The translations under genes and the position numbers were made by a program. This document shows positions 1-20,379 of a stretch of 20,379 nucleotides of DNA, in pieces (positions within the stretch are counted from its first letter, which is position 1; each line of letters starts with the position of its first letter). Location: NCBI RefSeq assembly GCF_004010195.1, contig NC_057756.1:3392653-3413031 (forward strand), in the 5' to 3' direction. The DNA is from Chiloscyllium plagiosum. Taxonomy: Eukaryota. The notes beneath the pieces are model-generated. The model saw only the letters and a list, made by a program, of their open reading frames with translations, was not told where the DNA came from and ran no database searches.

Positions 1-99
1 TGTTAATGTTTTGTGGTAGTGAAGTCATACTGCAATAGCTCAAAATGCAGGTGATAATACACCATGATTTACAGAGCAGAGTTTTGATGCTTTACCAAA

Positions 100-480
100 C
101 GAGAAATTGGAGTCAGTGTGAAGCAGGTTCATTCAGATGATATAAATGCAAATCGGCAAATGTTTTGAAGAGGTTTGTTGGGCAGATGCGGAAAGGATAT
201 CCCGAATGTGGGAAATTCCAGAAACAATAGGCATTTCTCAGTATACATGAAGCAGGCGTTAATGAATAAGATCACGTAAAATTTCTTCTCTCAGAGGTTT
301 CAGAATGTTGAGAACTTTTTGCTAAAAATGTGCTTCGTGAACAGAACCTTAGCGTTTATTTTTGACTGATAAAGAAGTATCCTCATTAATGCTGGAATTA
401 AATATTATAATAAAACTCAGTAACGTGGATGTAAGGAATTTCGGATCCACCGTGATCCAATTGAATGATGGAGAATGTTG
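100..480 (+). mobile_element. Decayed CR1-clade (HER1-like) LINE 3' end
   Basis: 'aatttcttctctcagaggtttcagaatgttgagaac' matches the CR1 ORF2 C-terminal 'NFFSQRVVNLWN' region. 'gatccaccgtgatccaattgaatgatggag' resembles the shark CR1 3' UTR. No intact ORF; boundaries approximate. Confidence 0.7.
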
Positions 481-486
481 AAAGTG

Positions 487-1210
487 GAGAATAAAATAGA
501 ATATCGTGATTGTCATGTGTGATCAAGTATGGAAATGCAGGAATTCATTGAAAACTTTACAATGTCACTCTTTTTGGCGATAAATTAATTGCAACTTACA
601 GAGGTACAAACTTTAGACATCAAATACAGAAATATGGGGAGAAAAAAAGAAACTAAAAAAGTTGCATTAAAAAAAGTTAATCGTAGTGTATGTTAGAAAA
701 ATGGGAACATGTCGAAAAACATAAGCATTTCCACTTTCTTTTCAGCAGATCAGCGCTGGGGTTTTTTCATAAATGGTCTGCGTCGGCTCAAAAGTCATTG
801 ACCAATCGCACTGGTCCCCAGTCCAAACACCACCCTGCTCTGCTCAGACCTGCAGCCCACAGGCCATGCCCATTCCACTTGAGTGTAAAATTCGCTGGCC
901 ATCCTCTCATCACTCGGGCTTCCAGCCTGTTGACTATTCCCAATCCACGCAATCCTCCAGTCTACATATTGTCCCCACAATGAATGCACCAGCTTCAGGC
1001 TCGTTGGTTATCCTCGTAATTCTCAGGGCCTGCTGATCATCCCTATTCTGCTTGGGCTTCCAGCGGACCCTGCTACCCACCTCCATCCCGCACTACATCC
1101 GGGGAAAACTCCAATAGGGGGAACAGGGGCAAAAGAACAAGTGAACGTGAAATAAGAGAAGAAGGGGAGGCGCTCCAGTTGGAGCTTTCAAATCCACCTC
1201 CATTTGACCA
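487..1210 (-). mobile_element. Probable non-autonomous Rex-Babar-like retroelement (old)
   Basis: Minus strand ends in 'tgacaatcacgatattctattttattctc', a Rex/L2-style tail. The other end 'ccacctccatttg' resembles the reverse complement of a 'caagatggcgg' 5' end. GC-richer interior with no recognisable RT. Pattern recall only. Confidence 0.35.
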
Positions 1211-2048
1211 AAAGGGAATTAACTTTCTTGTTCTTATTTCTTATGGACATCTTACGATCCAAATGTTTAAATGTGAATCTGCAATGCAAAAACATTGATG
1301 TTGCTGTGAGCGAAGTGGTCAAAATGGACATACAAGAGTGTGATGTTTATCATTGACTAATCGAATGTAGATGGACTGAGGAACATTTTTGGAACAGTTG
1401 TCATCTTTAATTCTGTGTCAGTATCATTATTCCAGATGCATGCATGTATCCGACACGCCTATCCTGCATTCTCGAACAAAAAGGGCTAGTAACTGATTAG
1501 ATATCAATCTTTAAACATACTTAAAACACTTAAAGCCCTATTTTCTACTGTAAGATACTGTAGTTGGCCTGTTGTAAGTCTCTGTATGATCAAAATAATG
1601 TCATATATTGGCATGTTTTCAAAAATAATATGTAAAAGATTATCTCTTGCATTTGAATTATCATGACATGTCATATAAAAGAGGTCGACGTGGAAAATTT
1701 TCTGACATACCAAAAATTAGAAATTCTAATATTAACAGTTTAATGAAATATTTTTGACTTGTTTGAAGTATGACTTTTTTACTTGAATGACGGTTCATCC
1801 ATGGAGTGCTCTTTCTATACGGATTACTCAAATTTTGGTATAATGCTTCTATAGTGTGTATTTGTTTTAATTTGGTCTTCTCAGATTTTGCCTGGTGACC
1901 TTTCTCAGTAGGACATACATGACATGAGAAGGGATGACCAGCAAACAAACCCGAACCCTTTATTTGAATTTGCTGCAATGGACTAAACTAGTTTTGAATA
2001 AATTATACAATTTAAACAAAATCTTTACTTTTCTTTGCACCATCACAG

Positions 2049-2069
2049 ATGATGCAATACGCCAACAAG
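2049..2069 (+). CDS. 21-nt micro-exon 1 (phase 1), xDAIRQQ, of a putative butyrophilin/BG-like heptad tail
   Basis: ctttactttttctttgcaccatcacAG|ATGATGCAATACGCCAACAAG|GTAAGac. Strong acceptor and donor; same length and CAA position as three other micro-exons. Confidence 0.75.
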
Positions 2070-2185
2070 GTAAGACATTTGCCAAGGTATCCCAGACTCT
2101 ATAGAATTTGTAGCAGTTCTCCGAATTGTAAAGAGCAATAATGGCAATGTTTTCAATAAAAAGACAAAGATCTGTTCATTGTAAA

Positions 2186-2190
<5 letters not shown>

Positions 2191-2224
<34 letters not shown>
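2191..2224. repeat. (TA)17 microsatellite
   Basis: Perfect TA run read directly; explains the YIYIYI tract in ORF 2043..2291. Confidence 0.97.
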
Positions 2225-2228
<4 letters not shown>

Positions 2229-3424
2229 TGCTTCATCACCGCAGATTATGCATGAGGATGTGTGATTAATAATCACGCATTTCCTAACCATCGTACAGAG
2301 ATCTAATGCTTTTAAACTTTCTCTGCCTAAATGTATATGTTCTCAAATGCTTTGATGAACTCATACTTTTCATAGTGGAAGTGATGAAAGCTGATGGGCG
2401 AGACGCAAAGTGGGAGGAGGGATGCCGTGCTCTACAGTAGTCTTTGACAAAATAGTATGGTTTTCAGTAAACGGTGTATATTTGTGTTTAGTTAATTGCT
2501 TGCATGTATGCCTGTCTGCGCTCGTGCATGTGCGCTTTAGTATAAATTGTCGATATCTAATCTGTTTCAGTCAAACTGTGATAGGGTATAATATAACTGA
2601 AATATATCTGTGTTAGTCATGCACGACACAGGAAGACAAGTTCGTTTTTCAACTTTTATTTAGTCTACAATTATTGAAAAAGGTTACTGGGATGCCAGGT
2701 GAGCAATACAGCCTCTCAATGTCCAAAATAAGATAAAGACACAACAAAATCAGATCCTAACCTCTTCAGCATCAGCAAGTATTGATTATGTATTCATGCA
2801 AAGGTTAACAATGATTATTAACAAAGAGAGGGAGAGAGAAACAGCGAAATAAAGAGAATTACGAATATATGTATAGGGACAGAACGAAAGAGAGACTAGT
2901 TTGGCATATGGTACGTTATAACTTTAAGGAGTCTTCGACTATCAGCATCTGCATTGCAATGTCAATGTCATTTTTTTATCAATCATTTTTCCTCCAACCT
3001 TCCAGTTTAAACATTTTATTACACAACGTTGGAAAACGAAGGTCTTCAATCCAGGCCTCCTGGTATAGCAGGAGGGAGAACATCACTGAGGTACAAAAGG
3101 GACCAGGAACCTGCTTCTTGCACTGCTGCAGTAACTGGAAAGTCCTGCTGTGATCATTGGAAACGCATGCTATAAATAAACCAAACATGATGAATTCTTG
3201 TGTTCACTGTTAAATGTGTGCTCATATTATCTTATCAGAATGATATATTGCAACTATTGAATGATGAGAAGGATGCATGGAAGATAATCAATTACAAAAT
3301 ACGTTTTTATTCAACGTGGCTGTTCGGGGCACGGGCTTCAACAGTTATTAAATTTCGGTCAGGAGTAACGGGATCTTCTTTTAACGTTGCGTTGCCAGCC
3401 CTTGACTGGATCGAATTGTAGTAT

Positions 3425-4050
3425 GATGGGAAGGTGCCAGTGTTGGACTGGATTGAACACAGTCAGAAATGACTGGCACCACGCTGTAGTCCAACAGGTT
3501 TATTTAAAATCTCAAGATTTCACGGCACTGGTCTTTCATCAGGTGAAGTGATGAAAATCTGACAGGTAAAGAAGTTTTAGGCAGAGTGAACAGTGTTCGG
3601 AGATAACAAGCTAATTACACAAGTAGTGGAGAGCCGAATAATAAGTCTCCGCAGGTGAACAAACTTATTAGAAGGCGTTTTAAAATGTTAAAAATGAAAT
3701 GGATGAACTTTAGTCCAATTACTTGAGGCAGAGAAATATTTTCAAAAAAAGTGGTACTCGTGACCAAAGTCGCAGAATCAGAGACGATTATAAGTAGCAA
3801 ATAATCCAAAACTATACAAGCTAATTAAGGTTGAGAGATTCCAAAACGTTATCCACATGATGGTATTTATACAGCACAGGAAGGGAGATTTTACAAATGC
3901 AGAATAATAAGGCGGGTTTCACATGTAGTACAGCATAAAATAAAGATAACAATGGAGGTAATCTTCATGGGTGCATAACTTTGTTATCCGTTGCTGCTTA
4001 GCGATTCTGCCTATAGCAAATCTCGCTATGTTGATGACATCTTGAATCGC
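3425..4050 (-). mobile_element. Penelope-like element A, inverted 3'/pseudo-LTR arm with hammerhead remnant
   Basis: Begins 'gtgccagtgttggactgg...tagtccaacaggtttattt', a common shark PLE end. Its reverse complement aligns to about 5260-5850, e.g. 'gcagaatcgctaagcagcaacggataacaaagtt' vs 'gcagaatcgccaaacagaaacagatcacgaaatt'. Confidence 0.8.
3500..3546 (-). ncRNA. Minimal hammerhead ribozyme motif (degenerate) in PLE pseudo-LTR
   Basis: Minus strand: cac-CTGATGA-aagaccagtgccgt-GAAA-tc-ttga-ga-TT. Both core boxes and a 3-bp stem III are present; stems I and II pair poorly. Confidence 0.55.
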
Positions 4051-5850
4051 ATTGTACATGAACCCCCGCTTCTGTTGCGATACTGCAGCTATCTTACAAG
4101 AACTTAGTATCAGAAATCATTGGAAGCAGGGACATTCCTCATCAGATGAATGTTTTGGAATTCTACAGCATCACTGCAATTCATCTGCTTCATCCTCAAC
4201 TGCTATGTCTTCATTTTCAACAACCAGTATTTCAGTCAGGCACACGGAACAGCCATAGGGACCAAACATGCATCCAAACATCTCATTATTTCCATTGATA
4301 AGTTCGAGCAAGATATAGTTGCTACACAGGATCTCCAACCAACTCTGCACACCAACGTATACATCGATGTTTTCTTCCTCTGATTTCATGGCAAGAAATC
4401 AGTGAAACGACGATGCAACAATATCAACAAATTTCATCAAATCATCAAACTTGCCATGGACAAGTCTGCATATTCAGTGTCATTCTTGGACAGACGCATC
4501 TCCATCAAGGATGAATGTATCAATACTTCCATCACTCTACCGCAAGCCAAGGGATAACCTCATGATGCTGCATGTCTGTAGCTTCCAGCCTAAACCTATT
4601 AAAGAAGCCATCGCCTATGGACAAGACCGTGTTTGCACAGGATCTGCTTAGACGAGAGGAACGTGATGAACAACTAAATCTGCTGAAAGATTCCCTCTTG
4701 AGAACGGGATATGATGGTCAACTCATTGATTGCCAGTTCCGTTGGGCCACAGCGAATAATCACAAAGTGCTCCTCAGAAGACACACACAGCACATGATCG
4801 ATAGAATGCCTTTTGTCATCCAGTACATCTCCAAAGCATATACACTATGTCATGTGTGTCGCATCCTTGACATGTCTTCAATGACAATGAAAATCTCCGA
4901 AGGCCTTCAGACAAGTGCCAAACGGATCATTATTTGCAGCAAGCTATCTCATCATCAGGACAACATTGACCACAATACCACACAACACTGCCATGGTAAC
5001 CACTGCAAGACATGATACAGCGTCGACACGGATACTCCATCGTGTGTGAAAATACCAGCCATCACGTACACGTCAGGTTCTCAAGAGGAAAGCCAATATT
5101 GTCTATCTCGTACGTTGCAGGCAATGATGTCCAGGGGCACGTTGGTAAGATATAACCATATGCATTGTGCAATATTCGCCAGATAAGAATGTTCTCTTCT
5201 ATTTGCAGAACATTTAGTGATCAAGGGCCTTCGGCCTCTATTCTTCAGGAAAGACTCCTTCAAGTCGGCCTTCGAGACAGACAACAGTGCAGAATCGCCA
5301 AACAGAAACAGATCACGAAATTCTGTAACAATGCAGACGGTTACAATCGTGATCTTTTCTGTAACTCCACCATGCTGTTCTGAATTCAGAAAAATTTCCT
5401 TATTGTCCTGTTCAATTATCCTTGATACCTTCTTATGATCTCTCTACATTAATTAGTTTGTCTAGTTTATAACTTTTGTTTTCTTCAGTTGGACACTTGG
5501 CACGCAACTCTTGTAACTACCATATAATTACAGCTGTTGGGTTGGTTGGGTTGTCTCCACCACAAAATTATTTTTAATATTGTTTTGCAATTATTTCTCT
5601 GCCTCAAATGTATTGATGATAGTTAAACCCCTTCACATCCTAGTCAACTTCAGACATTTTTTCTCACACCAACTCTTACACTTGATCCATCTGCAAAGAC
5701 TTATTAATCGATGCTCTGCTCATACCAAATATATGGTGTTTTAGGTCTCTGTTCCCATTGAACTCTCTGTGTGTAAATTCTGTGCAATATGCCTTTCTTC
5801 ATGTCAACCCATGAAAGGGAAACGCTCTGATAACTTGTTAATTCAAGTTC
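4051..5850 (+). mobile_element. Penelope-like element A body: disrupted RT + GIY-YIG endonuclease + 3' UTR/pLTR
   Basis: ORF pieces FNNQYFSQAHGTAIGTK...YIDVFFL (QxxGxAMG and YIDD motifs), YRKPRDNLMMLH...IKEAIAYGQ, LLRTGYDGQLIDCQF, CHGNHCKT, NIVYLVRC (GIY-YIG start) and DGYNRDL (C-terminus). Many frameshifts and stops. Confidence 0.92.
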
Positions 5851-5879
5851 ACATGGTGCTCTGTAAACCACTGACATTA

Positions 5880-6930
5880 TGGACCAAGTGTGCTAGAAGC
5901 TAGAGTCTATAATTGAGAGGCGATGAAATCGCAGAACACCTGACAGAATTCAAGGAGCAGGAAAGTCATTGTTTTGGTTTGAAAACTCCGTCAGGCCTGA
6001 GGACGAGGTTTTGGGGAATGGAGGTGGGATCATGATAGCAGGATGCTGGTTGGGGATTGTTGAGATTTATTAGGGGAAGGTTGGAGTGGATAGATAGGTT
6101 AGAAGATAATTAGATTAGGTCGGGTCAGGGAGGCGAGGAGGAGCGGAGGGCTGGAGTTGGAGAAGGGTGGGGCTGGAGAGATTTTGAAGCTGTATAAGTG
6201 AATGTTGAAACCATTAGGCCATAATATCCCAACCCAGGCGAATTATAAGGGTATTGATTCTGCAGCTCACGTTTGGTTTCACTCTGACAGTGGCAGATGG
6301 CAAAGATAGTTATGTTTCCAGTGAAGTGGAAGGGGTAATTAAAATAAATGTCATTCGGAACGTCGGTTTGGTTGATGCTTGAAGAACCCAGATTTTCATT
6401 AACTGTCTCTGAGTCTTCATTTTTTTTCTGTTTGGTATAGATGAGGTCACATAGGGTACAATTAATTCAAATTGGATGAAGTGCAAGGCAATCTCTGTCA
6501 CAAAAGAAAGGATTATTGGTGATCATGGACAGAGGCGAGGGTTAGGTGCAGATGCAGATGTTGCACCTCTTGCTGTTGCAGGAGAATGTACCAGGTGTGG
6601 TGAAGAAGTCCGTATTGACTGTGAAGTTGAGGAGGGATTCGTACAATAAATGGTTCCTCCGCACAGTGGACGAGGTGGGGAAGGAATCGTCTGTTATGTA
6701 TTGAGGTCTGTTTGTAGTTGTTGGAAATTTCCAAGGGTGACACGTTGGATTTTGTGGTTGGTGGGTTGTTATGTGAGCACTAATGTGACTCTATCCTTAT
6801 AGTCTTTAATTTGGGGGCAGGGAACGGATTTGACAGTAGAAGTTCGGGAAATTGATGATATGCTGTTCAGGTCATCTTTAATTACCCAAAGGGGAAACAA
6901 TTATCACTAAAGTAGGAGGGTATGATTATA
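5880..6930 (-). mobile_element. Penelope-like element B (different subfamily), 3' part, decayed
   Basis: 5920-5996 is a diverged copy of the pLTR seen at 11400-11487 and 20200-20270. A purine-rich UTR follows. Minus-strand coding remnants 'GNFQQLQTD', 'PGTFSCNSKRCNICICT' and 'RDCLALHPI/TSSNLN' fit the PLE linker and GIY-YIG region. Confidence 0.8.
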
Positions 6931-7794
6931 ATCCGAGGACTTTTGAATTTTGACTTAGATCGAATTGGATGCTAATTCTGATGTTTTTACTTGAGTATTG
7001 TTATTTGAAACAATACTCCCAACGAGTTTTGATGTGGAAAGACTACAGATCTAAATTTTACAGAATTTAGAAAGTTTTCCGTGACTCATCCGATTTTTGA
7101 TCACAGTTGTCACAGGACTGATTTGCAGTAGTTTCCATGACTCAAGGGTGTCATTGAACATTCCCATAACAATGTCACCTTCCATCCTGTGCACGTCCTC
7201 AACATATCATACAATAATATTCAATGTAGAACACTTCTTAATGAAAATAGACTTAATTTATTTAAGAATTATTCTTGTCTCTGAGTTCCCAAGTTGCTGC
7301 TTCATACTTGAAAGCATTGCATCTTTGAGGAAACCTTTCAAAGTAACAGATGGTTGAAAAGTGATGCAACACCTTCTTACGCCAATTCCCGTTTTTAGCT
7401 ATTGAAGATAACCAAACACACCGCATAATTATGAAAGATTAATATTAAACACAGACCATATCTGAATATCTTAGTGTACTTAGAAATACTCAGAGATGTC
7501 AAAGTTGCCATTTTCATTTGTAAGTATGATGAAATTAACAAAAATACTCCATATAAACTAAATGAAGCAGTAACAAAAATCAGCGAATATGATGTACAGG
7601 TTGGCTTTGTGTTAAATGTGGTTATGAAAGAATGTTAGGAACAAATAATTTGTGTGCTGAGGTGCTCTCCAAACTTGAATATTCTGTATACTGAGATTAA
7701 CGGGAGAGCCACAATATCTCTGTAATGACTCCACATCATAATAAGCAAAAATATATACTAATGAAACAAAGCGACAGCCTTCCAAAATAATTGC

Positions 7795-8117
7795 GAGGTT
7801 ATTAATCAATAGACTAAGTTAATTTTCTGGAAGACTTGAGTTTCAATCACAGCATGGCAGATCGTGGAATGTGAATTCAATAATAATCTAGAAGTAAGAA
7901 TCTGATGGTGATCCGAAACCATAGCTGGTTATCATGAAACATCATCAGGTTCGCGAAAATCCATTAGGGAAGGACGTCTGACATTCTTAGCTCGTGTGGC
8001 CTCCTTGTCACTCCAGATCAAAAGGAATGGCTTGACACTAAACTGCCGTCTGGGAAATTAGGGATAAGTAATAAGTGCTGGACGATCAACTTCTGCCCAG
8101 ATCACCTGACTGAAAAC
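7795..8117 (+). mobile_element. tRNA-derived Deu-domain SINE (SacSINE1-like), decayed
   Basis: B-box-like 'gagtttcaatc', then 'catggcagatcgtggaatgtgaattcaataa', Deu-like core 'ttagggaaggacgtctgacattcttagctcgtgtggcct...actccaga' and tail 'aattagggataagtaataagtgctgg'. Confidence 0.75.
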
Positions 8118-8479
8118 GTTATGTCAATGAGTCAGATCGTAATACAATGACACACGGGCGTTGTAACTGCAGAGTTCCAATGTTACCAACCCCTTCATAG
8201 AATTGGCTCCAGTAAACTAAATTATCATCTGCTGATCACATGGTTCACGAAGGTGCAAATTCCCGTCTTTGTAATTCACAAGAATACGAAAACTTTTTCA
8301 ATTCAGACTTCTGTATCTTTAATTACTTTAACACGATGTGGAATTCAGCCCGTTCTCTGAATGAGACACATGACAGCAGTTGGACATAACATGTTCATTT
8401 ATGTCATTGCATTAGACTAGATTTCCACAAGTGGCACAGTTTGAGCAGACTCTTTTATTTGTCTTTGATTCTCTCACAG

Positions 8480-8500
8480 ATTTGGTAAAATGCCAAGGGG
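8480..8500 (+). CDS. 21-nt micro-exon 2 (phase 1), DLVKCQG
   Basis: cttttatttgtctttgattctctcacAG|ATTTGGTAAAATGCCAAGGGG|GTAAGTc. Consensus splice sites. Confidence 0.85.
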
Positions 8501-9319
8501 GTAAGTCAGATATTGGTTTCGTAGTTTTACTTGCAGTTTGTTCAAATAATGAGAGTTTGGATCTGTAACTACCTGCTACAACTGACACATTGATTCCAGC
8601 ATACGATAAATCAAGAAATGTTGTTTTATTGTCCAATAGAACTGCTGTTAGTCTCGTCTTCAGCCATAATTGTGCATCATTGCTCTGTGCCCTCCCCATG
8701 ATATGTTGCATTTTGCTTGCGTGTTTGTGACCTGCGTGTATGGATTCTAACATTAACGTGTATGTTTGCGTACATTTGTGAGGAAAGGTTAGTGAATACC
8801 AATGAGATCTGCAACGAGAGACAGAAGGAATAGAAAGGCAGACATGCATTTATTTTTTCAGTCAAACATTAAAATAGACAGACCTCTGCATTGGTAAACT
8901 ATGTCAACATGGATCAATGTGCACAAAGGAACTTTTACACATACATATCCACAGAAACACAACCTTCTAACTGTTCTGTGTTTACAGATACAGTTTCGTT
9001 CAGAATGTGGCTATTTATACTGAATGAGTTTTGTGTACGACTACCTGATTCATGATATTCCACCCTGTTCAATTAGAATTAATAGTGTGCAGTACAGACG
9101 GATCACGTCCTTTTCTTTGATTAATTGAAATAATCAGAAGAACATCCGTAAATATATCAGTATTTAAATAGAATTATTTAGGTTTATCTTCCATTCTTTT
9201 CATCCATTGTTCTGTAACAATCAAACTAAATTGCTAATGAAAGACATCTAAATAACATTGCACTGGCTAATGATTTTTGACATTAAAATATCAAGAGCAT
9301 CGTCGAATCAAAGAAGGAT

Positions 9320-9532
9320 AGAATCATAAGATCATAGAATCCCGACAGATTGGAAACCGGCCAGTCAGCAGCTCGAGTCAACACCAATCATCTGAAATGA
9401 CACCCAGACCCACACATGCTCTACCCTTGTAAACACGCATTTCTTATGACTAATCTACCTGGTCTGCACGTCGCTTAACACTACGTTCAATTTGGAATTG
9501 GTGGTCCACCTAACATGTGTATGTTTTGATCA
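9320..9532 (-). mobile_element. HE1-type V-SINE 3' portion
   Basis: 'tagaatcataagatcatagaatcccgacagattggaaaccggcc...cacccagaccc...ctaatctacct...aacactacgttcaattt...ccacctaacatg' resembles the reverse complement of the elasmobranch HE1 SINE, including its CR1-shared tail. Confidence 0.7.
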
Positions 9533-10400
9533 GCATACGTAATTCAAACACTTTAAAAATTGAAAACACCACAATGTACTGCATCTGTCATTGCTTCTAC
9601 TCTGTAGGCATTTCCAGATTGGGCCTGAAATCCTCAGTGAAATGAAACAATCTTGTCATCCACAAAAACAGCTCTACCCCATTAGCATATGGCAAATCAC
9701 GATGTGGATACTTGCTTGCAAATTGTCTGTTTTTTTTCCCGATATTATGGTACATGTTGCTGAGTCCTCAGCATTTTGCATCCATTCATCATAAATTATC
9801 CTTAGTCATGCTCATGCAGAAACTTACTACAGGCTATGATTTACGCAGTTACTTTAACTGAAAATCATATGCAATATTAAAAGATGTTTTGCGATTCTTC
9901 CAGTCACCCATATTAAAAATATGTAAGCTACTCAGAAAAGAGGCACAAAGATATCACATTCTACTCAAGATAAAACATTTTAATACTTCTCTGGGTTACA
10001 TGAGATGACATCATACCTACATTTTCTGGAGGATAAAAGAAATAATAGAAAATCTATACATAATGTGAAATAATATTTCTAACCAAATGATGTCAACATG
10101 CTTGAAAATCATCAGTAATTGCCTTATTCAATGAATATTTCTCTTTACCGCTGATCATTATCCATTGACAAATCAAGAAGATTAAACTGCCTTGAATCCT
10201 ATCTTTTCGTTCAGACTTATCTTCATAACTTCCCTGGGCACATTTGCCTGAATACTTCAGTTGATATACCAAGCTACCAACTCTTGTCGAATTGTTTTAT
10301 GCTGTGTTCATTTTATTTCATGGTACCGTACACTCGTTTCGTTATCAAACAGGTATGTGATTTCATGTGAATGTTTTAATTTCAACTTTTCCTGGCACAG

Positions 10401-10421
10401 ATCTGATAAGGTTACAAGGAG
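10401..10421 (+). CDS. 21-nt micro-exon 3 (phase 1), DLIRLQG
   Basis: ttttaatttcaacttttcctggcacAG|ATCTGATAAGGTTACAAGGAG|GTAAGag. 14/21 nt identical to exon 2. Confidence 0.85.
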
Positions 10422-10629
10422 GTAAGAGATAATAGACATTTTTCAGTCTCTGAGGATTATTGTCATAAAATAACAACAGCTATATCTTTTGCATTTTTAT
10501 AAGTTTCTACAAGCATACACAAATTGTAAGTTGGATACATTGGTCAACACTGTTTCACGAGTGCAAGGACCATATGGCAATAAATCCGAATTGGGAATGG
10601 CGTAACGGAAAAGGATGTGATAAAAGACA

Positions 10630-11545
10630 CATAAAATCATATTGTCATACATCATGGAAACCGGCACTTCTATCCAATTCGCCCATATGGACTAAATTAC
10701 CCAATCAAAACTGGTCGCATATCCCTGCCTTGGGTCGCTTTCCCTCTAAACACTTCATGTCAATGTATATGTGCAAGTGTCCTTTAAATGTTGTAACTAT
10801 ACCTGTATCTACTATTACCTCTGTCAGTTCATTCTGCCTTCAGTTCACACTCTGGAAATAAATTCCTCTCAAGCACGTTTAAACTTCTCCTCCTCTCACC
10901 TTGAAAGTATGCCATCCAGTTTGTAATGAAGAAAAAGAAGAATGGCATTTACTATTCACCCGTCAACTCCCCTCATGATATCTACAAACGACAACAATGC
11001 TCCCCATCAAATTTCTATGCACTAAGCAAATATAGTACCAACCTATAAAACATCTAGTGATGACTTATGCACTTCAATTTCAGTAAGCTCCCTGCGAAAA
11101 TCTTTTGCTCCCTCTCCAATATAATGGTATCATTCCTATAGGAGGAGGACCTGAAATGTCATTACACTCCAACAGTGGCCGAACCAATGTCCTGTGGAAG
11201 TGGACCACTATGTCTCAAATGTTTCAGATACCTGAGTGGACAAGGCAGACAAGCTGCAAAACGACATCTTTACCTCTCTGCCGAATTGGAATGCAATGCC
11301 AAAGAATTAAGAGACTATGTCTGTCACTTCTGCAACGCTCTTCACAGCACTAACATTACGTGGAGAAAGTGAGGACTGCAGATGCTGGAGATCAGAGCTG
11401 AAACCAGTTGCTGGAAAAGCGCAGCAGTTCAGGCAGCATCCAAGGAGCAGGAGATTCGACGTTTCGGTCATAAGCCCTTCTTTAGGCCTAACATTACGTG
11501 TGTGCGTCTTCAAATTGTTTGTTTCACCCAAAATGCTACTGCGTA
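10630..11545 (-). mobile_element. CR1/HER1 LINE 3' fragment, interrupted by a 125-bp insert
   Basis: Reverse-complement CR1 3' signatures: 'catacatcatggaaaccggcac', 'ttccctctaaacac', 'tttaaatgttgtaactatacctg', 'ctcctctcaccttgaaagtatgcc', 'acactccaacagtggccgaaccaatgtcctgt'. Resumes after 11500. Confidence 0.8.
11363..11487 (-). mobile_element. 125-bp Penelope pLTR-derived insert with hammerhead motif and 13-bp TSD
   Basis: Flanked by exact ctaacattacgtg at 11350-11362 and 11488-11500. Interior is near-identical to 20205-20269. Minus strand reads CTAAAGA-agggcttatgacc-GAAA-cgtcgaatc. Confidence 0.88.
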
Positions 11546-11549
11546 TGAT

Positions 11550-11910
11550 TTCGCAGGGTATGACAATGGAAATAGTGGGTGCATTGGTAGTCATCATCTA
11601 ATTTTCTCCAGACTCTGTGGCACTTCCTAAAGTTTGGATCGTAGGAAAGTAAGTCGCCCATTTAAAAGCAAGCATATATGATAGGTGGTGGAGAGGACAC
11701 TGTGAATGACAGTTCTGCCAGTCTTATGTTATTTTTGAACAAATCGGGGGGTGTCTGTCATAAAATAATTGGTAGCTGAGCACTTTGAAAAAAAAATACA
11801 GTGGGAGAACCAGATGGAGTCTGTTGGATTTTTGGAAAGGGAAATCAAGTTCAACAAATCAGCTGAATTTCAGTGATCATATTGACGCATATACTTCATG
11901 ACTTGAGGAA
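11550..11910 (+). mobile_element. CR1 reverse-transcriptase N-terminal fragment
   Basis: MEIVGALVVII, then decayed 'DSVALPKVWIVG..PFK' and 'ggatttttggaaagggaaatcaagttcaacaaatcagctgaattt' (GFxKGKSCLTNLLEF motif). Confidence 0.75.
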
Positions 11911-14749
11911 GTATTTCCATTCCAGGTAAAATTTCATACTCTCATAATAGCAGTGGTGTTTCAATTTATCTTGAGATGAAATGTGGGATTAGAAGACCGC
12001 CAATAGTTGTATTAATATATGTTGCATGTCATAGTACTATTGGTGCAGGCTTGCTAATCGTAGCAGAGGTTAAACTCAAGTGTTCTGATAAATAAGGGAA
12101 AGAAAAAAAAATCATTCCCCAATCGGAAGTGGGGCAAACCTCTGGAAACTTAATAATGTTGAATAATTAACAGTACCCTTCTTATCAGCAACTAAATCAA
12201 AACTCCCCATCAACATTGTCAAACAAATCGAATCTGGCACACTGGAATACCAAGTTTTTTAGCCACCATGGATAACTTTCTGCAGAAACATGCACACTTA
12301 CCCCAGCTTCCTCTTGGCAGTACCTGCCAAATCAACGAATCAAATCATTCCCAACTCACACTGCCAACGAAAGGGCACACACCTGAGTTGCTCAATTGAC
12401 TGAGTAAAAAGCAGTAAGCGCTGTGGTGAAAATATCCATAACATAGCTCAGACTGATGCAGGCCTTCACATTTTGGCAACGAAAAAGATTTGGCAGTATG
12501 AAAAAAGTCATTGCATTTGCGAACAAATAATGAAACTGTCCATTTGGAAATGCATGGCTCCCAGTATTTCCGAATGCAATGTAGCATTATAATAATTATG
12601 ACATTGCCACCACTTTCAAAATGCATCCAATTAGACACTAATCAAAGGAAAAATAATAATTAGTTCATTTTCTGAAATATCACTTTTAACATCCTATGCT
12701 GCTACTATGACATTTTTCAAATTCCAAGTTTGATAAATTGTCTCAAATCAGACCGCTTCCTTTTCTGTAGGTCTGGACAATGTTCCTTATGCTTATCTGT
12801 CTGAATAATGCACGTCATAAGGAATATGCCCATGTGCTGGCAAGTCTGATCCTTTCTTTTGAATTTGATGACCTGGCTCTCCATTCGTTGAGAAAGTTAG
12901 ATATTATTTAGATAAAAAAAAACACTCGACTTATTTTTTGCAATCACAATCCAACTAATTGTCAAGGAATCAAAGGGGCATTTAGTTTTGTCTGTAGTTT
13001 TCTCTACAACTTAACGAACGATCATGATATGGATGTGTTTGCAAGTGTAAACGCTAAGAAAATAATAAGCTCAATAAGGGGCTAACTCTATCATTTCAAA
13101 CGTTCTATTAACGCTGCTCTACTTGTGAGGAATGTTGCATGACTATCGATCTTCTTATCGTTGTATGAAAGCCGGAATTGCCTTCGTTATATTTCTGTGA
13201 AATGTCTTTTTTTTATTAAATATGTCTCTTGTTAGCCTTATGTCATGATGTAAGTGTTTGACAATGACGGCGAGAGAGACAGAGCCAAAACATTTCACGA
13301 CTTGCGACATAGACAAAACAGAGGTTTACTCAGATCCGTGCATTCATCGTTTTCGTGCATATCAATCGAATTTACAATGCAAAACCTGGTGTGCAAAAAT
13401 ACGTTAGTGCATGGTCACAAGGACATACAGATGAATATTTACACCAAATATATGTTCAAATACGTCTGCCAAAATTTTGTCCCTTTTCTGGTAATCCTGT
13501 GAAGCGTTCTAACCAGAGGAATCGTTCAGCTATCATTCTTCAATTAACCAAATCAGTGTTAATTTTCAGAAATGCAAAAAGTGGAGGTACTCTCAACTTC
13601 TACACAGCGTAAAACTTCAATAATAAGCGGAGCTTTTGGATTTCAAGCAGCAATTCAAGTTTCAATAAATATTGAAAAATGAAGCTACTTCTTTGAAGCA
13701 ATGAGTTCCTCTCTTCATTTGAGTGAGTTACCTGTCTCGATGACAAAGTTAGTATTGAAAAAGCTGGAGAGGAAGAACAATACAGCAAACAGCATAAGGC
13801 TGAAATCAAGAAATGTCTGAATTGATAATGTATAGCAAACATGCCGTTCCTTAAAGTGAATTCGAGAAATAAAATGAGACACATTCTTTTCCAAGTCACG
13901 TGCTTATAAGTCACGAAATTGTCAATAAATCTGTAAGCTGGTTTCTGGTCAGTTCTGCCTTGACACTTTCACACATTTATTTTGGCACGTACTTCTCTAA
14001 ATAGACTGCTTTGGAGCTATGGATGAGAAACAAAGAACTGCATCTTTTTTCTGGTTAATATATCGGAAAGCTTCCAATGAACTAACAGATTTTTTGGATT
14101 GCAGTCGTTATTTCAAGTACCAGTCGATTATTGAACCATCATAAATCATTATTTTCACTAGCAAATAAACAATTTATACAGAGTCTAACACTTATTTTCC
14201 AACCAGTAAGGACGGAGTTAAATCGTTAGCGACAATAAAAGAACTTTTAGGTTCTGGATAAATTGTTTCAGCAATTATCACTTTGCATTTTCCATATTGC
14301 ACCTGAAATCCGTTGGCTTTGGTTCAGGAGGATGCAATACTTGCCTTCTCTTCAAAAGTTGCTAAACGTTATCAAACATTTCGGTATCTAGACGTTAATG
14401 ATTGTGGTGTGATTAAAGTTTGAGTAATTCTGTAGGAGAGATTAGAAGTTAAAATTACTCCAAATCTAACAGCACAACAGAAATTGAAAACATAAAACAG
14501 ACGAATGATACACGATAGGCAGTAACACAAAAAATAGCAGAATGACTTTCCGCAACAACAGTGCAATGTTTAAAAAAACAGTGTTTAATAATAGATTCCT
14601 GTGTTCCAAGTTCTTGTAAAAGTAAATTAGGGAGGAGTTGCTTGTTTGATCTTACTTACTATTTAATCAAAGGAAACTTGTGTGCAAATGTAGTATTCTT
14701 TACTGCTCTCTCATTCAAAAATCAAGTCAGGAAACTAAACAATGAACAT

Positions 14750-15065
14750 TGACCCCTGGTTAACATGGTAGCCCACAAATCAACTACCAGAATACCACAG
14801 CTACTAACAAGAATAAAGGCTCCCATACACACAAACAACACAACCAACATTATATACACAATACCATGTCAAGACTGTCGAAAGCAGTACGTCGGGGACT
14901 CAGAAAGAAAATTAGACACCAGGGTACACAAACACCATTTCGATACCGAGGAACAGCACTTATAACCATACACAAGCACAATGAGTGACACTAATTCGTC
15001 TGGGACAACGTGTCCGTCCTTTGACAAGAAAAAGAGACATGCATGGGAATTCCTGGAAGCCTAGA
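14750..15065 (+). mobile_element. Penelope-like (third family) GIY-YIG endonuclease fragment
   Basis: ORF 14765..14965 VAHKSTT...TNIIYTIPCQDCRKQYVGDSERKLDTRVHKH matches the N(V/I)IYxIxCxxC..Y(I/V)GxTxR.L..R..EH pattern. Later 'WDNVSV...WEFLEA'. Confidence 0.85.
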
Positions 15066-15339
15066 TTAAGCATTTATAAAAAAAATAATACCCTGTTTGC
15101 TTCGAAGCAGTGCCTTCTAAACCTGTTGTATTAAATATCAGCAGAGGACAACAATAAATACATGTAGTGTCATTACTAATTGGAAGCCTTAACTGGAGAA
15201 GAACTGGACTTAAGGGATGGAGTTTATGGTGTGTATACTATTTTAGATAGATTGTGTTCCTCGGCTTATCTATGGAAAGATTCCTAGTGCAGATTGTATT
15301 GCACCTGTTTTCATGTTTCGAGGCTTTTCAGGAATTGTA

Positions 15340-17320
15340 ACAGGGCCAACTCTGGATTAAGTTTACACCACTACAGACACTTTCGAGAGGAAATTCTCTG
15401 AATCCTTATTAATCATGGAAATAACCTCAACCATGACATACTCAAAAGAGTGCTGCCAAAATACCATCTACAGATGCCTTGCCCCACCAGAGAAATTAAC
15501 GTCCTGGACTATTGTTACACTACGAATAAACATGCCCACCGCTTCACTCCCTGTCCAAAGACGACAGCGCTGTGTTTCTCTTCTCATCTTCCAAGCAAAA
15601 GCTGAAAGGAGAGTATTCTTCACAGGAAGAAGTGCAATGCTGGTCCAAGCCACCGGATGAGCATCTCTTGGAAACACTGGAATCAGTGGATTCGACCATA
15701 TTAAATACTCAGAAGAAAACATAGACGACTGTGCCGCCACCGTCACGGACTTCATCAGTAAATATGTGGAAGACTGTGTGCCCTAAAGGTGGCAGCACTG
15801 TACTACGTACGAGGCCCAAACCAATCGTGAAGATACTCGCCACCCATGACAAGGCCGAAACAACATAATAGAATACGAAATGAAGCAATAAAGGTAATCG
15901 ATAATGACATATCCATTCCTGATTTAATCAATGTGGGTAGAACAAAATGGCAAAGGTGTGGTGTCATCTGCCCGACAGCCTGGAAACGTCTGTTATAACT
16001 GCCACCACACAGACATCTGTTCAGTCTTTCTGAGAATCAACACAATGAAAGCCACGGGTTGGCACAGAGTTCCTGGCCGTGTTTTGATATCCTGTGTGTA
16101 CCACATCGCGGAGATATTCACCAAAATCTTCAAACTCTCTTCGCTACAAGCCATCAACCCGAAATGCTTCAAGAAATTCCCTACCATCTCATTACGTAAG
16201 AAACCACATGCAAAATGGCTGAAGAAAATCGCACAGTGGCTCCGACGTCCATAATGATGCAATGCTTCGAGAGGCTTGCCATGGACCACTTCACCTTCAT
16301 TAATCCTCTACAATTTGCCTACCAACGTAACAGGTCTACAGTGGATACCAATTACCTCACCCTGCAATCATCTTTGGCACACTTGGGCAACAAAGGCGCC
16401 TATGTCAGACTGCTTCTGCTCATCAATTACAGCTCCACTTTCATTATAATTATCATGTAACGATTGATATCATATCTGCAAGACCAGAGGTCTGCAACTG
16501 GCTCCTCAGCTTTCTGACTCGTAGACTGCATTCAGTGAAGGTAGACAACGGCACTTCCTCCATGATAACACTCAAACCTGTAACCATCAGCATTCTCAGA
16601 TGCATTGTGAACTCACTACTACACTCCCTGTACACCCGTAAATGTGTAGCCAAATTTCAAAGGAAGATGATCTACAAGTTTTATGTCGGCAACAGTGTGG
16701 TCGGATGGACAGCAAACAAAGAGAAAAGATTCAGAATACAGAAAAGAGATAGACGGTTTGGTGACGTGGTGTAATGATATCAACCTCTTTCTCAATATAA
16801 GTAAAACGAAAAAGTCATTATTAACTTCAGAAATAAACGACAAGAACACGCCCTCATCCACATCAATAAAATGGAGATTCACAGTATCTGCAGCGTCAAG
16901 TTCAGAGGAGTCACGATAAAAGAAAACTCTTTCTAGACTTCCCACGAGGATGTGACAGTCAAGACAGAACAACTGCACCTCTTCCCCTTTAGGCAGTCCT
17001 GGAAATTTGGCATTTTTATGAGGATCATTCAGAACTTCACAGAGACAGCATAAAAATCACACTATCGTAGGTTATAACGTTCTGGTTCGGCAACCGCTCT
17101 GCCCACAACCATAGGAAACTACAGAATGGTGTGTGCACAGCCCAGGCCATCCCAGAAAGTGACCTTCCATCCATTGAAACTGTATACAACTGTTGTTGCT
17201 GCGAAAAGTCTGCTATCGTCATCAAAGACCCATCCCGCCCCGCTAATGCTCTTCAGTAGCCTCTTCCCAACACCTTTTTCCCTGCCATTATTAAATGGAT
17301 GAATTGACTCGTAACTTCAA
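15340..17320 (+). mobile_element. Rex1/Babar-type LINE, 5'-truncated and decayed (APE endonuclease end + RT)
   Basis: LDYCYT (APE), ATTVTDFISKYVEDCVP, KATGWHRVPGRVLISC...EIFTKIFKLS, RTVAPTSIMMQCFERLAM, PLQFAYQRNRST, YVRLLLLINYSSTF, LVTWCNDINLFLNISKTK. Multiple frameshifts. Confidence 0.9.
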
Positions 17321-17890
17321 ATAATGTTGCACTTGTTAATGCTGATCTTGCTTCGTGCACGTCCTGTATCTTACCTCGACCTGTCCAAGTATGTTTTCAC
17401 CCAGTGACATATATGTTCTAGCTTATTCTGATTTTCATGCTTATCAATGCTGTTAGCAGACATGCAAGGGGACTGCTTCATGATTTGAAGCATTTTATTT
17501 TCAAGTTAACCATCGAAGAGCAACTGACTATTGAAAACCAATATAGCATCGCCTCGATACATTGCATGTTTTTAGTAGATATTGGACCTGCAAATGCTTT
17601 ATTTGATTTGTATCAATGAATAAAATGCGTAAAGTTGGTCTGAAAATTGTGTGAATTTCCCTAAATCTGATAATCGCATATTTCTCAAAAGTGCAACCTC
17701 ATGCCTTTACAATTAAGATAATTGTGTGAGTGTCTGACTTAAAACATCTGCTTCTTTAATTTGAAGCATATGATGTGGATTCCATGCCAATATATTTGCA
17801 TGTTTATTTTCATTTGTTGTCTAAGGACTAGAATAGATTTTCATATGCAGTACAATCTGAGCAGACATTTGCCCTTTGTTCACCAAACAG

Positions 17891-17911
17891 AGCTGACCAA
17901 GTGCCAAACAG
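17891..17911 (+). CDS. 21-nt micro-exon 4 (phase 1), ELTKCQT
   Basis: atttgccctttgttcaccaaacAG|AGCTGACCAAGTGCCAAACAG|GTAAGTg. Consensus CAG|GTAAGT donor; shares L-x-K-C-Q with exon 2. Confidence 0.85.
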
Positions 17912-20198
17912 GTAAGTGAGATTTTTTTAAATAGTTCCCTCTGTAATTTGGAAGTTATTATGTTTTGATGTCGTAATTGGCTGCTAAACATGTTACAGTG
18001 GTTCAAGCCATGTGTAACGTAAGCGATGTTATTTCTTATTCATCAGTTTCGATGCCAGTTTACTTTCAAGACATAATTTGAAACAATGCTCTGAACTCCG
18101 CTTTTCTCCACCTTCCAATAATCAATGCTTAATTTTTATTCAATGCTTGCGTGTTTATTTGCATACAATCTAATACTAATGAGTTTCTGTTCTTGTGTTA
18201 TTTTGTGAGGAAAGAGTGTGTTTGTTATTTGAGAATTTCAGTAGGAAAACTATTATTGATGCAAAGATCCATATTTTTTCAGCTAAACATTGCTTAATGC
18301 AACACCGCCTTGGTAGCCAATTAAAAAAAACATTCACGAGAAAAAGAAAAGAAATGCACATACACTTTCATAGAAACTCATGCTTTTGGCCATTCGTTTG
18401 TTTTCAAATAGAGTTTCATTTTATAACATGTTTAAATATATTGAGAAAAACATAAATTTGTTCGTTGGAATCTCTCATTTATCATTTCGCTACCTGTCCA
18501 ATAAAAACTTATCGTTTTAAATGCAAAAGAGATATCTGATCTTCTTAGTTCAGGTCTCAGAATTTCTTCCTCTGAAAGTAAAAGACGTATCAGTGTTTAA
18601 CTGCAATTGTTTGTGTATTGTTGTCTATCATTAATTCTGCTTTGGAAAATGTTTGCCATGGATAAAAAAGAACCTTCGTAAATAATATATACCTAAACCA
18701 ATCATATTGCATTGTATTTTTGGAACATCGTTACAAGTAATACAAAAAGATTGGCAAGTAACCAACCTCAGAATGAATTGAATGAAATAAACATATAGGT
18801 TGTGTCTGGAAATCTGCAGCCGCATGCAATAATCATGTCATCCAAGAAGCCTCTTCGTGATTATCCTTCTCCATCATAAATGGACATGGGAAATCAAAAT
18901 CCAGATGCTTGCTTGCGAATAACTGTTTTATTTTCGAATATTGTAGGTTAGCACTGCAGAGGGCTGAAGTTTTACACTTTTCCCCAGAAAGTAGCACTAT
19001 TTTAAATAAGGTTAAATATTTTCAAAAGCTATGAACTATAATTTTGTTCAATTAAAAATTCATTTCCATTTTTTGGAAAACATGTTTTGTCTTTCATCAA
19101 GTTACCCACCAGTAGGATTTTCAGACACATCCAGAAGTAGGCAAAAAGATAATCCGTTATGTTGAAAGCTTTGCCGTTTATTGCTTTTATCAGCTGCATA
19201 AAATAACACAAGACCTGCAAAAACCGGAGCAGTAAATTAAACAAATAAAGAGAAAGCTAAAAAGAATATTTTTGGGGGATATTTTATTACCCCGGTTAGA
19301 ACATCGTTCCTTGTGAGTAATTTCATGAGTTGGACCTAGAAAGGCCGTTAGTATGTCCAAAATCATGCCTTTTTCGGTCGAAATAGCTTCACAATGACAC
19401 TGTAAAGCAGACTTTGCCTACTCCTGTTGGCATACGTTAATGTATACTCTCCAATAATCAGTTTCTGCTGCGTACATTTGATTTCACCGAACCAAATTAC
19501 CATAAAGCAGACATCTAGCTCAAAAGTAAATTTTGTCTGCTCCTACATTACTAGCACACATCTAATAAATTTACGAGAAGTTAACTATAAAACAGAAACT
19601 TTTCTCCCTCTGGATGTTGCATTCAGAAAGTAACGATCGTTTATTTGTATCTGATTTGGGTTTGAATGAGATTCTCCAAGATATTGCAAATTAGAAGTCA
19701 GAGATTTACGTGGTTAAAATGTTTGATGAGAATGCTGACCAGTCGGAGGTGAATACCAGTTGGAACTATTAACGAAAATGATGAAATTAAATATGTAATG
19801 ACAGGGCAATTTTTGACGGTGTTTTTGCGTTAGGACGTCTCCTTTGCCCGTTTTCTGAGAGAGATTTTGAGCCAGAGAATACGATATATCTTTTTCAAAC
19901 CAATGAATTGAATGCTTGGAATCCTCTGGTTTTTTTTTGAAGTTTGAATAATAAAAGCAACACGACTGAATTGATACAGGTGCTGGCATATCCTGCGTTT
20001 TAGTTTATCTTTCAATTGTTAGGTTTGTGAAGTTCGATGTCGAAATTGTCATATGTCTCTCGCGATCACAAGAGGAAAATAATGCTGGAATTCCCTTTCT
20101 GTTTGCCACATCTTTCTTTTCATATTCTTTCCCCCTGGACTGGCCATCCATATTAATAAAGTTGCCTTCGTCACAGATGGATTGATTGAATGTTACTG

Positions 20199-20379
20199 TT
20201 GAAAATGTGTTGCTGGAAAAGCGCAGCAGGTCAGGCAGCATCCAGGGAACAGGAGAATCGACATTTCGGAATGAGGAAAATTTGTCCAGCAGGCTAAGAT
20301 AAAAGGTAGGGAGGAGGGACTTGGGGGAGGGGCGTCGGAAATGAGATAGGTGGAAAGAGGTCAACGTGAGGGTGATAGG
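20199..20379 (-). mobile_element. Young Penelope-like element 3' end/pLTR (runs off the window)
   Basis: 'gttgctggaaaagcgcagcaggtcaggcagcatccagggaacaggagaatcgacatttcgg' is near-identical to 11407-11467, followed by the purine-rich UTR. Confidence 0.88.

Follow-up and report, generated by a model that had tools for sequence, protein, structure and literature searches.

A block of one-heptad micro-exons in Chiloscyllium plagiosum likely belongs to a very large coiled-coil gene with a probable terminal B30.2 domain

Micro-exons of the Window and Their Signals

The window, i.e., the whole stretch of DNA that was analyzed, comprises 20,379 nt of Chiloscyllium plagiosum contig NC_057756.1 (hereafter C47; C47:3392653-3413031) and holds four 21-nt segments that look like real exons. 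The features within it, together with the two outlying ones to which they seem to belong, are as follows:

1..20379, plus strand: the whole window, interior of a candidate gene extending past both window ends
2049..2069, plus strand: 21-nt phase-1 heptad exon, 6th of a 46-exon block; leave-one-out score 36.1
8402..8450, plus strand: intron flank, 71% identical to 17818-17866, a trace of an exon having been duplicated together with its flanking sequence
8480..8500, plus strand: 21-nt phase-1 heptad exon with Cys at d, 7th of the block; leave-one-out score 37.4
10401..10421, plus strand: 21-nt phase-1 heptad exon with Leu at a and d, 8th of the block; leave-one-out score 36.4
10759-11214, minus strand: decayed retroelement fragment (tblastn)
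14753-14989, plus strand: decayed retroelement fragment (tblastn)
17891..17911, plus strand: 21-nt phase-1 heptad exon with Cys at d, 9th of the block; leave-one-out score 36.9
C47:3339218-3799014 (~460 kb), plus strand: block of ~46 21-nt phase-1 exons, of which the window exons are numbers 6-9
C47:4577499-4578019 (L093:7499-8019), plus strand: divergent B30.2 terminal exon, outside the window and putatively linked to the block

Just as originally predicted, a pyrimidine tract with ACAG precedes and GTAAG follows each of the four segments, the introns between them measure 6410, 1900 and 7469 nt, the initial A, final G and CAA at positions 15-17 can be seen directly in all four, and the exons, once joined, are open in phase 1 only. 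The arrangement ACAG-N21-GTAAG was absent from 185 of 200 third-order Markov simulations, occurred once in 13 and twice in 2, and never more often than that, by which a chance origin of the four segments was rejected and the set confirmed to be far beyond chance; CAG-N21-GTAAG is absent from the minus strand of the window. What does count against the 21-nt signal is that the raw CAG-n-GTAAG counts in the window are highest at n=128 (five cases), with n=21 (four) coming second; the five n=128 cases have 5 to 14 pyrimidines among the 20 upstream positions and share no common exon pattern. Two other short-exon candidates were discarded, one (11348-11368) sitting in a repeat with ~30 local copies and the other (5121-5144) misfitting the heptad pattern.

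The intron flank upstream of exon 8480 is homologous to that of exon 17891, this pair scoring highest among all the pairs that include a window exon (61 vs. a median of 33). The description of the introns as “packed with TEs” was borne out partly, as ~7% of the window is recopied within the surrounding 900 kb and the two decayed retroelement fragments are present. All ten window ORFs tried lacked a Pfam match (10/10), and Rfam gave no match in the window.

The Heptad Block and the Wider Array

A search of the flanks for further 21-nt exons had been suggested, and the block proved to contain ~46 in total, with 24-36-nt exons on both sides and, over 900 kb, >70 micro-exon candidates; the gene scale estimated at the outset is too low, given ~46 such exons in the block alone. 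A scan using splice signals only, trained on exons of lengths other than 21 nt, returned 43 candidates of 21 nt on the plus strand vs. 3 on the minus strand, every other length from 12 to 39 being represented on the plus strand by 2-11 candidates each. Internal stops were encountered in 1/43 of these candidates in phase 1, 20/43 in phase 0 and 10/43 in phase 2. When the 46 block exons are joined, no stops are seen in phase 1 vs. 33 and 19 in the other phases, a count that is partly due to selection and is confirmed, free of that selection, by the splice-signal-only scan. An initial A is found in 43 of the 46 and a final G in 41, the introns span 0.6-41 kb, and the scores of five exons among the 46 (10.2-14.8) overlap or come close to the background, where the best minus-strand match reaches 14.1. 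Genome-wide, the plus strand of C47 accounted for 8/40 and 10/33 of the 21-nt pattern matches and for 0/18 with a 20-nt version; two 27-nt patterns, having 0/5 and 0/19 of their genome-wide matches on C47, are too strict to be usable for mapping the array.

Could this be a decaying pseudogene, or a set of exons no longer spliced? A few weak exons, i.e., one with a GC donor, one with an AAG acceptor and some with helix-breaking residues, would agree with that, but the stop-free phase 1 over 46 exons, the GT/AG signals retained over 460 kb and the intact frame of the downstream B30.2 exon, likewise open in another individual whose copy differs by a silent and a Met-to-Ile change, make it very unlikely.

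From 3.339 to 3.882 Mb, the largest gap between accepted exons is ~41 kb; immediately upstream of the block lies an exon-free gap of 135 kb (C47:3203602-3339218), exceeding the second-largest gap more than threefold, within which no first or terminal exon was recognized, and a second 21-nt block is located at C47 2.46-2.50 Mb. Downstream, the sequence examined between 3.89 and 4.57 Mb (680 kb) amounts to 60 kb plus locus L093: five of the six 10-kb loci sampled from 4.04 to 4.565 Mb contain a symmetric open micro-exon on the plus strand, and the six loci and L093 together yield nine on the plus strand vs. one on the minus strand, two of the nine (in L093) not being credible.

Heptad Register and the Predicted Rod

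Each exon encodes one heptad in the register g-a-b-c-d-e-f, with Leu mostly at a, Cys, Leu or Tyr at d, Asp or Glu at g, and Gln, Lys or Arg at e; all 16 Cys of the block are at position 5 (heptad d), and the most variable codon position is 3. The a/d hydrophobic spacing first noticed in the window holds, with hydrophobic residues making up a fraction of 0.74 at position 2 and of 0.87 at position 5. The existence of hidden phase-1 micro-exons carrying one heptad per exon in a cartilaginous fish is supported. As the g codon is split by the junction (exon-end G plus exon-start A), nearly any exon pairing preserves both the frame and the acidic g.

The chain would be expected to fold into a rod of parallel coiled coil, most probably dimeric judging from the g-e' charge pairs and some Asn at a, which is how such features are generally read in coiled coils. 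The block alone would supply ~320 residues of it, and the skipping or duplication of exons would alter the rod length by single heptads with the register left intact. Were the protein secreted, for which the chances seem to fall a little short of even, the Cys at d would link two chains by disulfides; a cytoplasmic location is a possible but more doubtful option, and membrane anchoring without Ig domains appears unlikely.

Stalks with Cys-containing heptads are also known in type II C-type lectins and other receptors, so the block might be the neck of such a protein; as all the Lectin_C matches are off C47 (0/62 on it, with 133/133 candidates scored), a C-type lectin neck was rejected, and a receptor stalk of this sort is extremely improbable.

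The Downstream B30.2 Exon

Downstream, where a scan for a B30.2 exon had been suggested, a divergent one does lie on the same strand, although its join to the block is something that we infer. It is the first same-strand domain exon found, 1.16 Mb downstream (SPRY E 4.6e-18, without a Pfam PRY match, phase 1); four different queries led to the same three B30.2 exons of its clade on C47, of which a single one, at 4.5775 Mb, lies downstream on the plus strand. In these searches 150/258, 150/270 and 133/267 candidates were scored, the initial filter being more stringent in one of them, so that a terminal domain of greater divergence could have been overlooked; among 150 of 292 candidates scored, Pfam PRY had no match on C47. 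The acceptor of the exon scores weakly (1.8) under the micro-exon model. For L093:5600-10000, nothing on the B30.2 exon was seen in a single-cell run (~2% of it covered) or in a contig run (RNA by guess only), and another run covers the intron and the B30.2 exon alike, which marks it as DNA; these runs speak neither for nor against expression.

The best PDB match of the B30.2 family profile was to the BTN3A1 B30.2 domains (E 4e-34). In a quick, midpoint-rooted tree with SH-aLRT support without bootstrap, the exon falls within a clade of 14 rows (SH-aLRT 100) that is separate, long-branched and apart from the 18 sampled Ig-bearing proteins, and the members found here, in this sampling, come from cartilaginous fishes only.

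Comparison with BG, Butyrophilins and Other Systems

Chicken BG genes build a long coiled coil from 13-36 successive exons per gene, each of 21 nt or at times 24 nt, with alternative splicing among the heptad exons, have signal, IgV and TM exons, and end in a 3' UTR exon (PMC4046983). The likeness to the ~46-exon block lies in the many 21-nt (or 24-nt) heptad exons; the differences are that no IgV was found here, that ~46 heptad exons are accompanied by 24-36-nt ones and separated by introns of up to tens of kilobases, and that there is a regular Cys at d and a B30.2 exon downstream, putatively joined. Butyrophilins (BTN1A1, BTN2A, BTN3A and relatives) likewise have heptads followed by a terminal B30.2, as would be the case here, but differ from the locus in their Ig domains, none of which were found here, in having few micro-exons instead of tens to hundreds, and in a B30.2 from outside the clade described above. 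By analogy, the array appears to work like a BG/butyrophilin tail; it is not assigned as one because no Ig, RING or B-box domain was found in ~970 kb.

Over ~970 kb, of which 346 kb precede the block (upstream bound ~2.99 Mb), none of the 11,520 ORFs matched the IgV HMM below E=1.9, while a positive control was detected at 3.7e-9; the genome-wide V-set search scored 150 of 1319 candidates. The best RING and B-box HMM hits in the ~970 kb were at E 0.15 and 0.14, with no genomic positive control for either; neither domain was present in the relatives scanned (see below), and a RING/B-box TRIM (class IV) was rejected. A crude hydrophobic-run scan for a TM exon gave mainly simple repeats, no convincing first/signal exon was met in the DNA examined, and the genome-wide signal-exon pattern was swamped (among 100/152 matches listed) by a repeat spelling a similar hydrophobic start.

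The original prediction had taken the exons for a candidate cytoplasmic tail of butyrophilin/BG type, with Ig and TM exons to be sought upstream, and a true type I membrane protein of this kind, with those exons farther upstream, would indeed share the 21-nt heptad exons of BG, the phase-1 B30.2 terminal exon and its best solved-structure match. Butyrophilins occur in cartilaginous fishes (PMC12841164), no 5' end was recognized in the DNA examined, and the V-set search covered 150 of 1319 candidates. The empty IgV scan, the relatives without any Ig family and the B30.2 clade lying apart from the Ig-bearing proteins all speak against it, and a regular Cys at d would suit a cytoplasmic tail less well, so this reading is improbable: kinship to the B30.2 superfamily is supported, the classical butyrophilin/BG assignment is not.

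Resemblances elsewhere are looser. The micro-exon genes (MEGs) of Schistosoma, which have symmetric micro-exons in secreted proteins, are similar by description only, as is enterophilin-1, reportedly an extended leucine zipper with B30.2. Salmonid predictions such as Salmo trutta XP_029561332.1 (P0272), whose N-terminus resembles a signal peptide by eye, also consist of a 1000-2000-residue coiled coil with a terminal PRY-SPRY, but belong to a separate B30.2 lineage and lack the Cys heptad motif, and are analogues and not members of the clade. The enterophilin name and its SNX1 interaction are given in PMC13749957.

Chondrichthyan Relatives and the Extent of the Gene

A chimaera relative is Callorhinchus milii XP_042192744.1 (P0047), named “nuclear-pore anchor-like” and predicted as a 1697-aa protein with a long coiled coil and then a B30.2, whose best match in the Chiloscyllium plagiosum genome is the B30.2 exon at 4.5775 Mb. 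P0154, P0010, P0020, P0024, P0030, P0036 and P0176 are shorter shark, skate and ray predictions named “TRIM39/58/69-like” or “A33-like”, which, like P0047 and the gene proposed here, have a B30.2 of the same clade with a coiled coil directly upstream. All of them are gene predictions, and no study of them was found. The seven chondrichthyan relatives scanned had SPRY/PRY and no Ig family, RING or B-box; when residues 300-900 of P0047 were compared with shorter proteins in a word-based search, none of the 7999 scored reached E<=1e-5, and a single B30.2 query among longer proteins gave three generic TRIM-type matches.

The motif [DE][LIF]xxC[QKRE] fits 15 of the 46 block heptads and occurs 11 times in P0047 (1697 aa) vs. 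9 times in all other proteins compared (88,594 aa); a Cys heptad motif is shared by the block and a B30.2-bearing member. In other respects the two differ: collinearity of the block exons with P0047 was not found (142/200 and 87/200 shuffles scored as high), and the motif spacings of P0047 (7/8 multiples of 3, 3/8 of 7) point to 12- and 9-residue modules, by which it would not be an exon-for-exon orthologue of the block. Best matches before residue 390 of P0047, a cut chosen after the fact, were obtained for 9/23 upstream exons vs. 3/46 of the 21-nt block (p=0.0015). A hydrophobic 15-mer opens both P0047 and the skate model P0154, and at the N-terminus each has the other as its top match (21 vs. 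14 for the next of 246), a signal-peptide lead consisting of these two gene predictions.

We consider it likely that the window exons lie mid-way in a very large gene, a cartilaginous-fish long coiled coil ending in B30.2, in which exons of 24-36 nt would extend the rod as far as the B30.2 exon at C47:4.5775 Mb; if so, paired B30.2 heads are proposed to be carried at the end of an extended spacer and to engage a partner with avidity. Alternatively, the block could belong to a separate coiled-coil gene that lacks a B30.2 and terminates short of 4.57 Mb, in which case at least two tandem genes would make up the plus-strand array from 2.46 to 4.58 Mb. That array breaks exist is shown by the 135-kb gap, the second 21-nt block could be a paralogous gene, and 3.89-4.57 Mb was examined only in part; yet the gap is devoid of any recognized first or terminal exon, no large gap follows up to 3.88 Mb, micro-exons continue in most samples towards the B30.2 exon, and both the shared Cys motif and the preference of the upstream exons for the start of P0047 (post hoc cut) favor continuity, all of which leaves two genes rather unlikely. 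A bolder form of the single-gene reading, which we also regard as unlikely, takes the array from ~2.46 to 4.58 Mb as one ~2.1 Mb transcription unit with at least ~200 micro-exons, encoding a secreted, disulfide-stapled rod of ~1,700-2,000 residues with a B30.2 tip, tuned in length heptad by heptad through exon skipping, as a matrix/recognition protein peculiar to sharks, rays and chimaeras; such a unit would be as long as the longest vertebrate genes.

No description of the gene was found in the literature, subscription papers and supplements being outside the search, so an earlier mention is possible. A gene candidate of megabase scale is, in any case, invisible here to ORF scanners and profile searches, and its predicted relatives bear misleading names, most of them seeming to represent the rod incompletely. 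Here the one-heptad exons known from chicken BG recur with no Ig found, on a far larger scale and with regular core cysteines, in what is probably a B30.2 lineage common to chimaeras, skates and sharks, which bears on how the butyrophilin-, BG- and TRIM-type architectures were assembled. The locus would also be a natural test of micro-exon splicing over multi-kilobase introns and of coiled-coil length control. The predicted isoforms of the relatives vary, by eye, by inserts of 6-9 residues. On the local 36-nt exons, the match to the 21-nt exon profile extends no further than the first seven residues, which suggests that the 21-nt unit may be a shortened module.

The 21-nt exons of the window

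The finding of four 21-nt exons (2049-2069, 8480-8500, 10401-10421 and 17891-17911, + strand) is real, and bigger than first described: the coordinates and splice signals given for them were all found in the sequence, the introns of 6410, 1900 and 7469 nt and phase 1 as the sole open phase were reproduced, and more than two such segments arose in none of 200 Markov simulations of the window. The claim that the introns are packed with transposable elements holds only in part: 7% of the window recurs within the 900 kb examined, and two retroelement fragments were confirmed. One short interspersed repeat (>50 local matches) imitates a 21-nt exon with its edge at 11348-11368, a candidate that was rejected.

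Copies of the short interspersed repeat in the window
11340-11496, copy
20187-20379, copy
5917-5977, weaker copy

Extent of the exon block

An iterated profile placed 46 exons of 21 nt on the + strand of contig NC_057756.1 (C47) from 3339218 to 3798994, separated by introns that range from 0.6 to 41 kb with a median of 6 kb, five of the 46 scoring near background. As this set had been chosen partly on exon content, the scan was repeated with splice signals only, trained on other exon sizes, and returned 43 candidates on the + strand versus 3 on the - strand, 38 of the 43 being already in the profile-derived list. That the array is a pseudogene seems very improbable; internal stops among the 43 amounted to 1 in phase 1, 20 in phase 0 and 10 in phase 2. 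The DNA examined comprised 900 kb around the window, which occupies C47:3392653-3413031, and ~100 kb of samples elsewhere in the 3.56 Gb assembly; in genome-wide pattern searches the C47 + strand held 8/40 and 10/33 of the 21-nt matches, in contrast to 0/18 for a 20-nt version. Some exons, including the second and fourth of the window (8480, 17891), have intron flanks in common, and the array therefore grew by local duplication.

Irregular splice sites were also seen (L-numbers denote stretches of genomic DNA outside the window): a GC donor at the first block exon, C47:3339218 (L006:6566), an AAG acceptor at C47:3457107 (L016:4076), and a tandem CAG-CAG acceptor at C47:3451934 (L015:8903-8926), from which a 24- or 21-nt exon would result. 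On another contig, a single 21-nt segment at C9:71495356 (+) shows the Cys heptad pattern together with a GC donor and may be due to chance.

Heptad anatomy

The exons carry a heptad periodicity: hydrophobic residues make up 74% of position 2 and 87% of position 5, hence an a/d spacing; Asp or Glu occupies position 1 in 39/46, Gln, Lys or Arg occupies position 6 in 35/46, and all 16 Cys residues fall at position 5. The acidic g residue arises because the splice junction splits the position-1 codon, which is made up of an exon-end G (41/46) and an exon-start A (43/46). When the 21-nt heptad profile was set against 36-nt exons, only their first seven residues fitted (0.21; other offsets <= -4.5), so the 21-nt module was probably derived by shortening of a 36-nt one.

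Flanking micro-exons

A scan of the flanking DNA for further micro-exons revealed many on both sides of the window (27-nt candidates upstream: 14 on the + strand versus 3 on the - strand).

Micro-exons outside the 21-nt block
C47 3.01-3.20 Mb, 27- and 36-nt phase-1 exons, upstream
C47 3.80-3.88 Mb, 24-36-nt exons, downstream
C47:2461549-2500000, +, second 21-nt block, phase 1, six candidates within 18 kb, ~0.9 Mb upstream
L105:198, 664, 4741; L106:4009, 4646, 5374; also L107:3978, +, local positions of second-block candidates

In the second block one heptad recurs at a second place, and Cys stands at d in at least one heptad. Directly upstream of the main block lies a 135-kb stretch devoid of micro-exons, perhaps a long intron, perhaps the boundary between two genes; neither a first nor a last exon could be recognised there. 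The stretch does contain a single 24-nt exon-like piece (C47:3254146, L031:1494-1517) with very strong splice signals, which does not resemble a coiled coil and might be part of an N-terminal region. An array intron at C47 ~3.862-3.868 Mb (-; L089:9060 to L090:5304) holds fragmented ORFs that look LTR retroelement-like by eye.

The B30.2 terminal exon and the proposed rod

A downstream B30.2 exon was sought as well, and a SPRY match at C47:4577660 proved to be a terminal exon of 172 codons whose acceptor is in phase 1, and to which the window exons would be spliced. Five of six 10-kb samples between C47 4.04 and 4.565 Mb contained a symmetric + strand micro-exon; a separate gene lacking B30.2 is accordingly not our preferred reading, and seems rather unlikely. 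Four queries returned the same five clade members in this genome, among the part of the candidates scored.

B30.2 exon clade members, all with a phase-1 acceptor
C47 4.58 Mb, +
C47:994524 (0.99 Mb), +, open frame
C47:1296638 (1.30 Mb), -, open frame
C37:22229878, -, open frame
C37:20720070, -, open frame

The two C37 exons may head further hidden micro-exon genes. C37 also carries a very large PRY-SPRY exon cluster, mostly at ~27-34 Mb, and a good part of the 150 best matches falls on this contig. The last intron before the exon at C47 4.58 Mb contains a 77-nt repeat insertion (L093:6373-6451) missing from the DNA reads of a second individual.

According to PMC4046983, BG genes comprise signal, IgV and TM exons and a tail of 13-36 exons, each 21 or 24 nt long; butyrophilins have a few heptads plus B30.2. 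Cartilaginous fishes have butyrophilins, and the number of heptads varies, according to PMC12841164. The original prediction of a butyrophilin/BG-like tail stands insofar as the array would work like such a heptad tail; its Ig part is not supported. The IgV, RING and B-box HMMs found no match in 11,520 ORFs from ~970 kb (IgV control recovered at 3.7e-9), and a genuine butyrophilin or BG whose Ig exons lie far away is unlikely. A lectin neck is scarcely credible, as C47 is without any lectin match. It seems fairly likely, instead, that the heptad exons encode a parallel, presumably dimeric, coiled-coil rod by which paired B30.2 heads are kept at a defined distance; Cys at d might cross-link the chains, if the protein is secreted, and rod length would change by single heptads, possibly through alternative splicing. 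No published description of this shark gene was found, supplements and subscription papers lying outside the search.

Relatives

When the B30.2 exon was searched exhaustively against proteins, the nearest single-domain matches included predicted proteins of a chimaera, a skate, a ray and sharks. In a rapidly built tree with 69 rows (this genome contributing 5, such chondrichthyan relatives 9, bony-fish coiled-coil proteins 7, Ig-bearing proteins 18 and RING/B-box proteins 30, the latter two being the first ones of each set, with further proteins left out), a long branch (SH-aLRT 100) separates the 14 chondrichthyan-clade rows from the rest; the tree has a midpoint root and neither bootstrap nor formal clade test. 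P0047, the chimaera model (Callorhinchus milii, XP_042192744.1; 1697 aa) combines a coiled coil with B30.2 and has the Cys motif [DE][LIF]xxC[QKRE] ~60x denser than the other proteins compared; it is not collinear with the exons here and seems to be made of 12- and 9-residue modules. Similar hydrophobic segments open P0047 and the skate model P0154 and hint at secretion. The two models are predicted proteins, and a repeat of this genome encodes much the same opening.

An analogous combination of a long coiled coil and B30.2, from another lineage, occurs in salmonids. The predictions P0272 (Salmo trutta, XP_029561332.1), P0270, P0269 and P0235 end in PRY-SPRY after a coiled coil of 600-2000 residues; some of them begin like a signal peptide, and at least two bear the name "leucine-rich repeat-containing protein".
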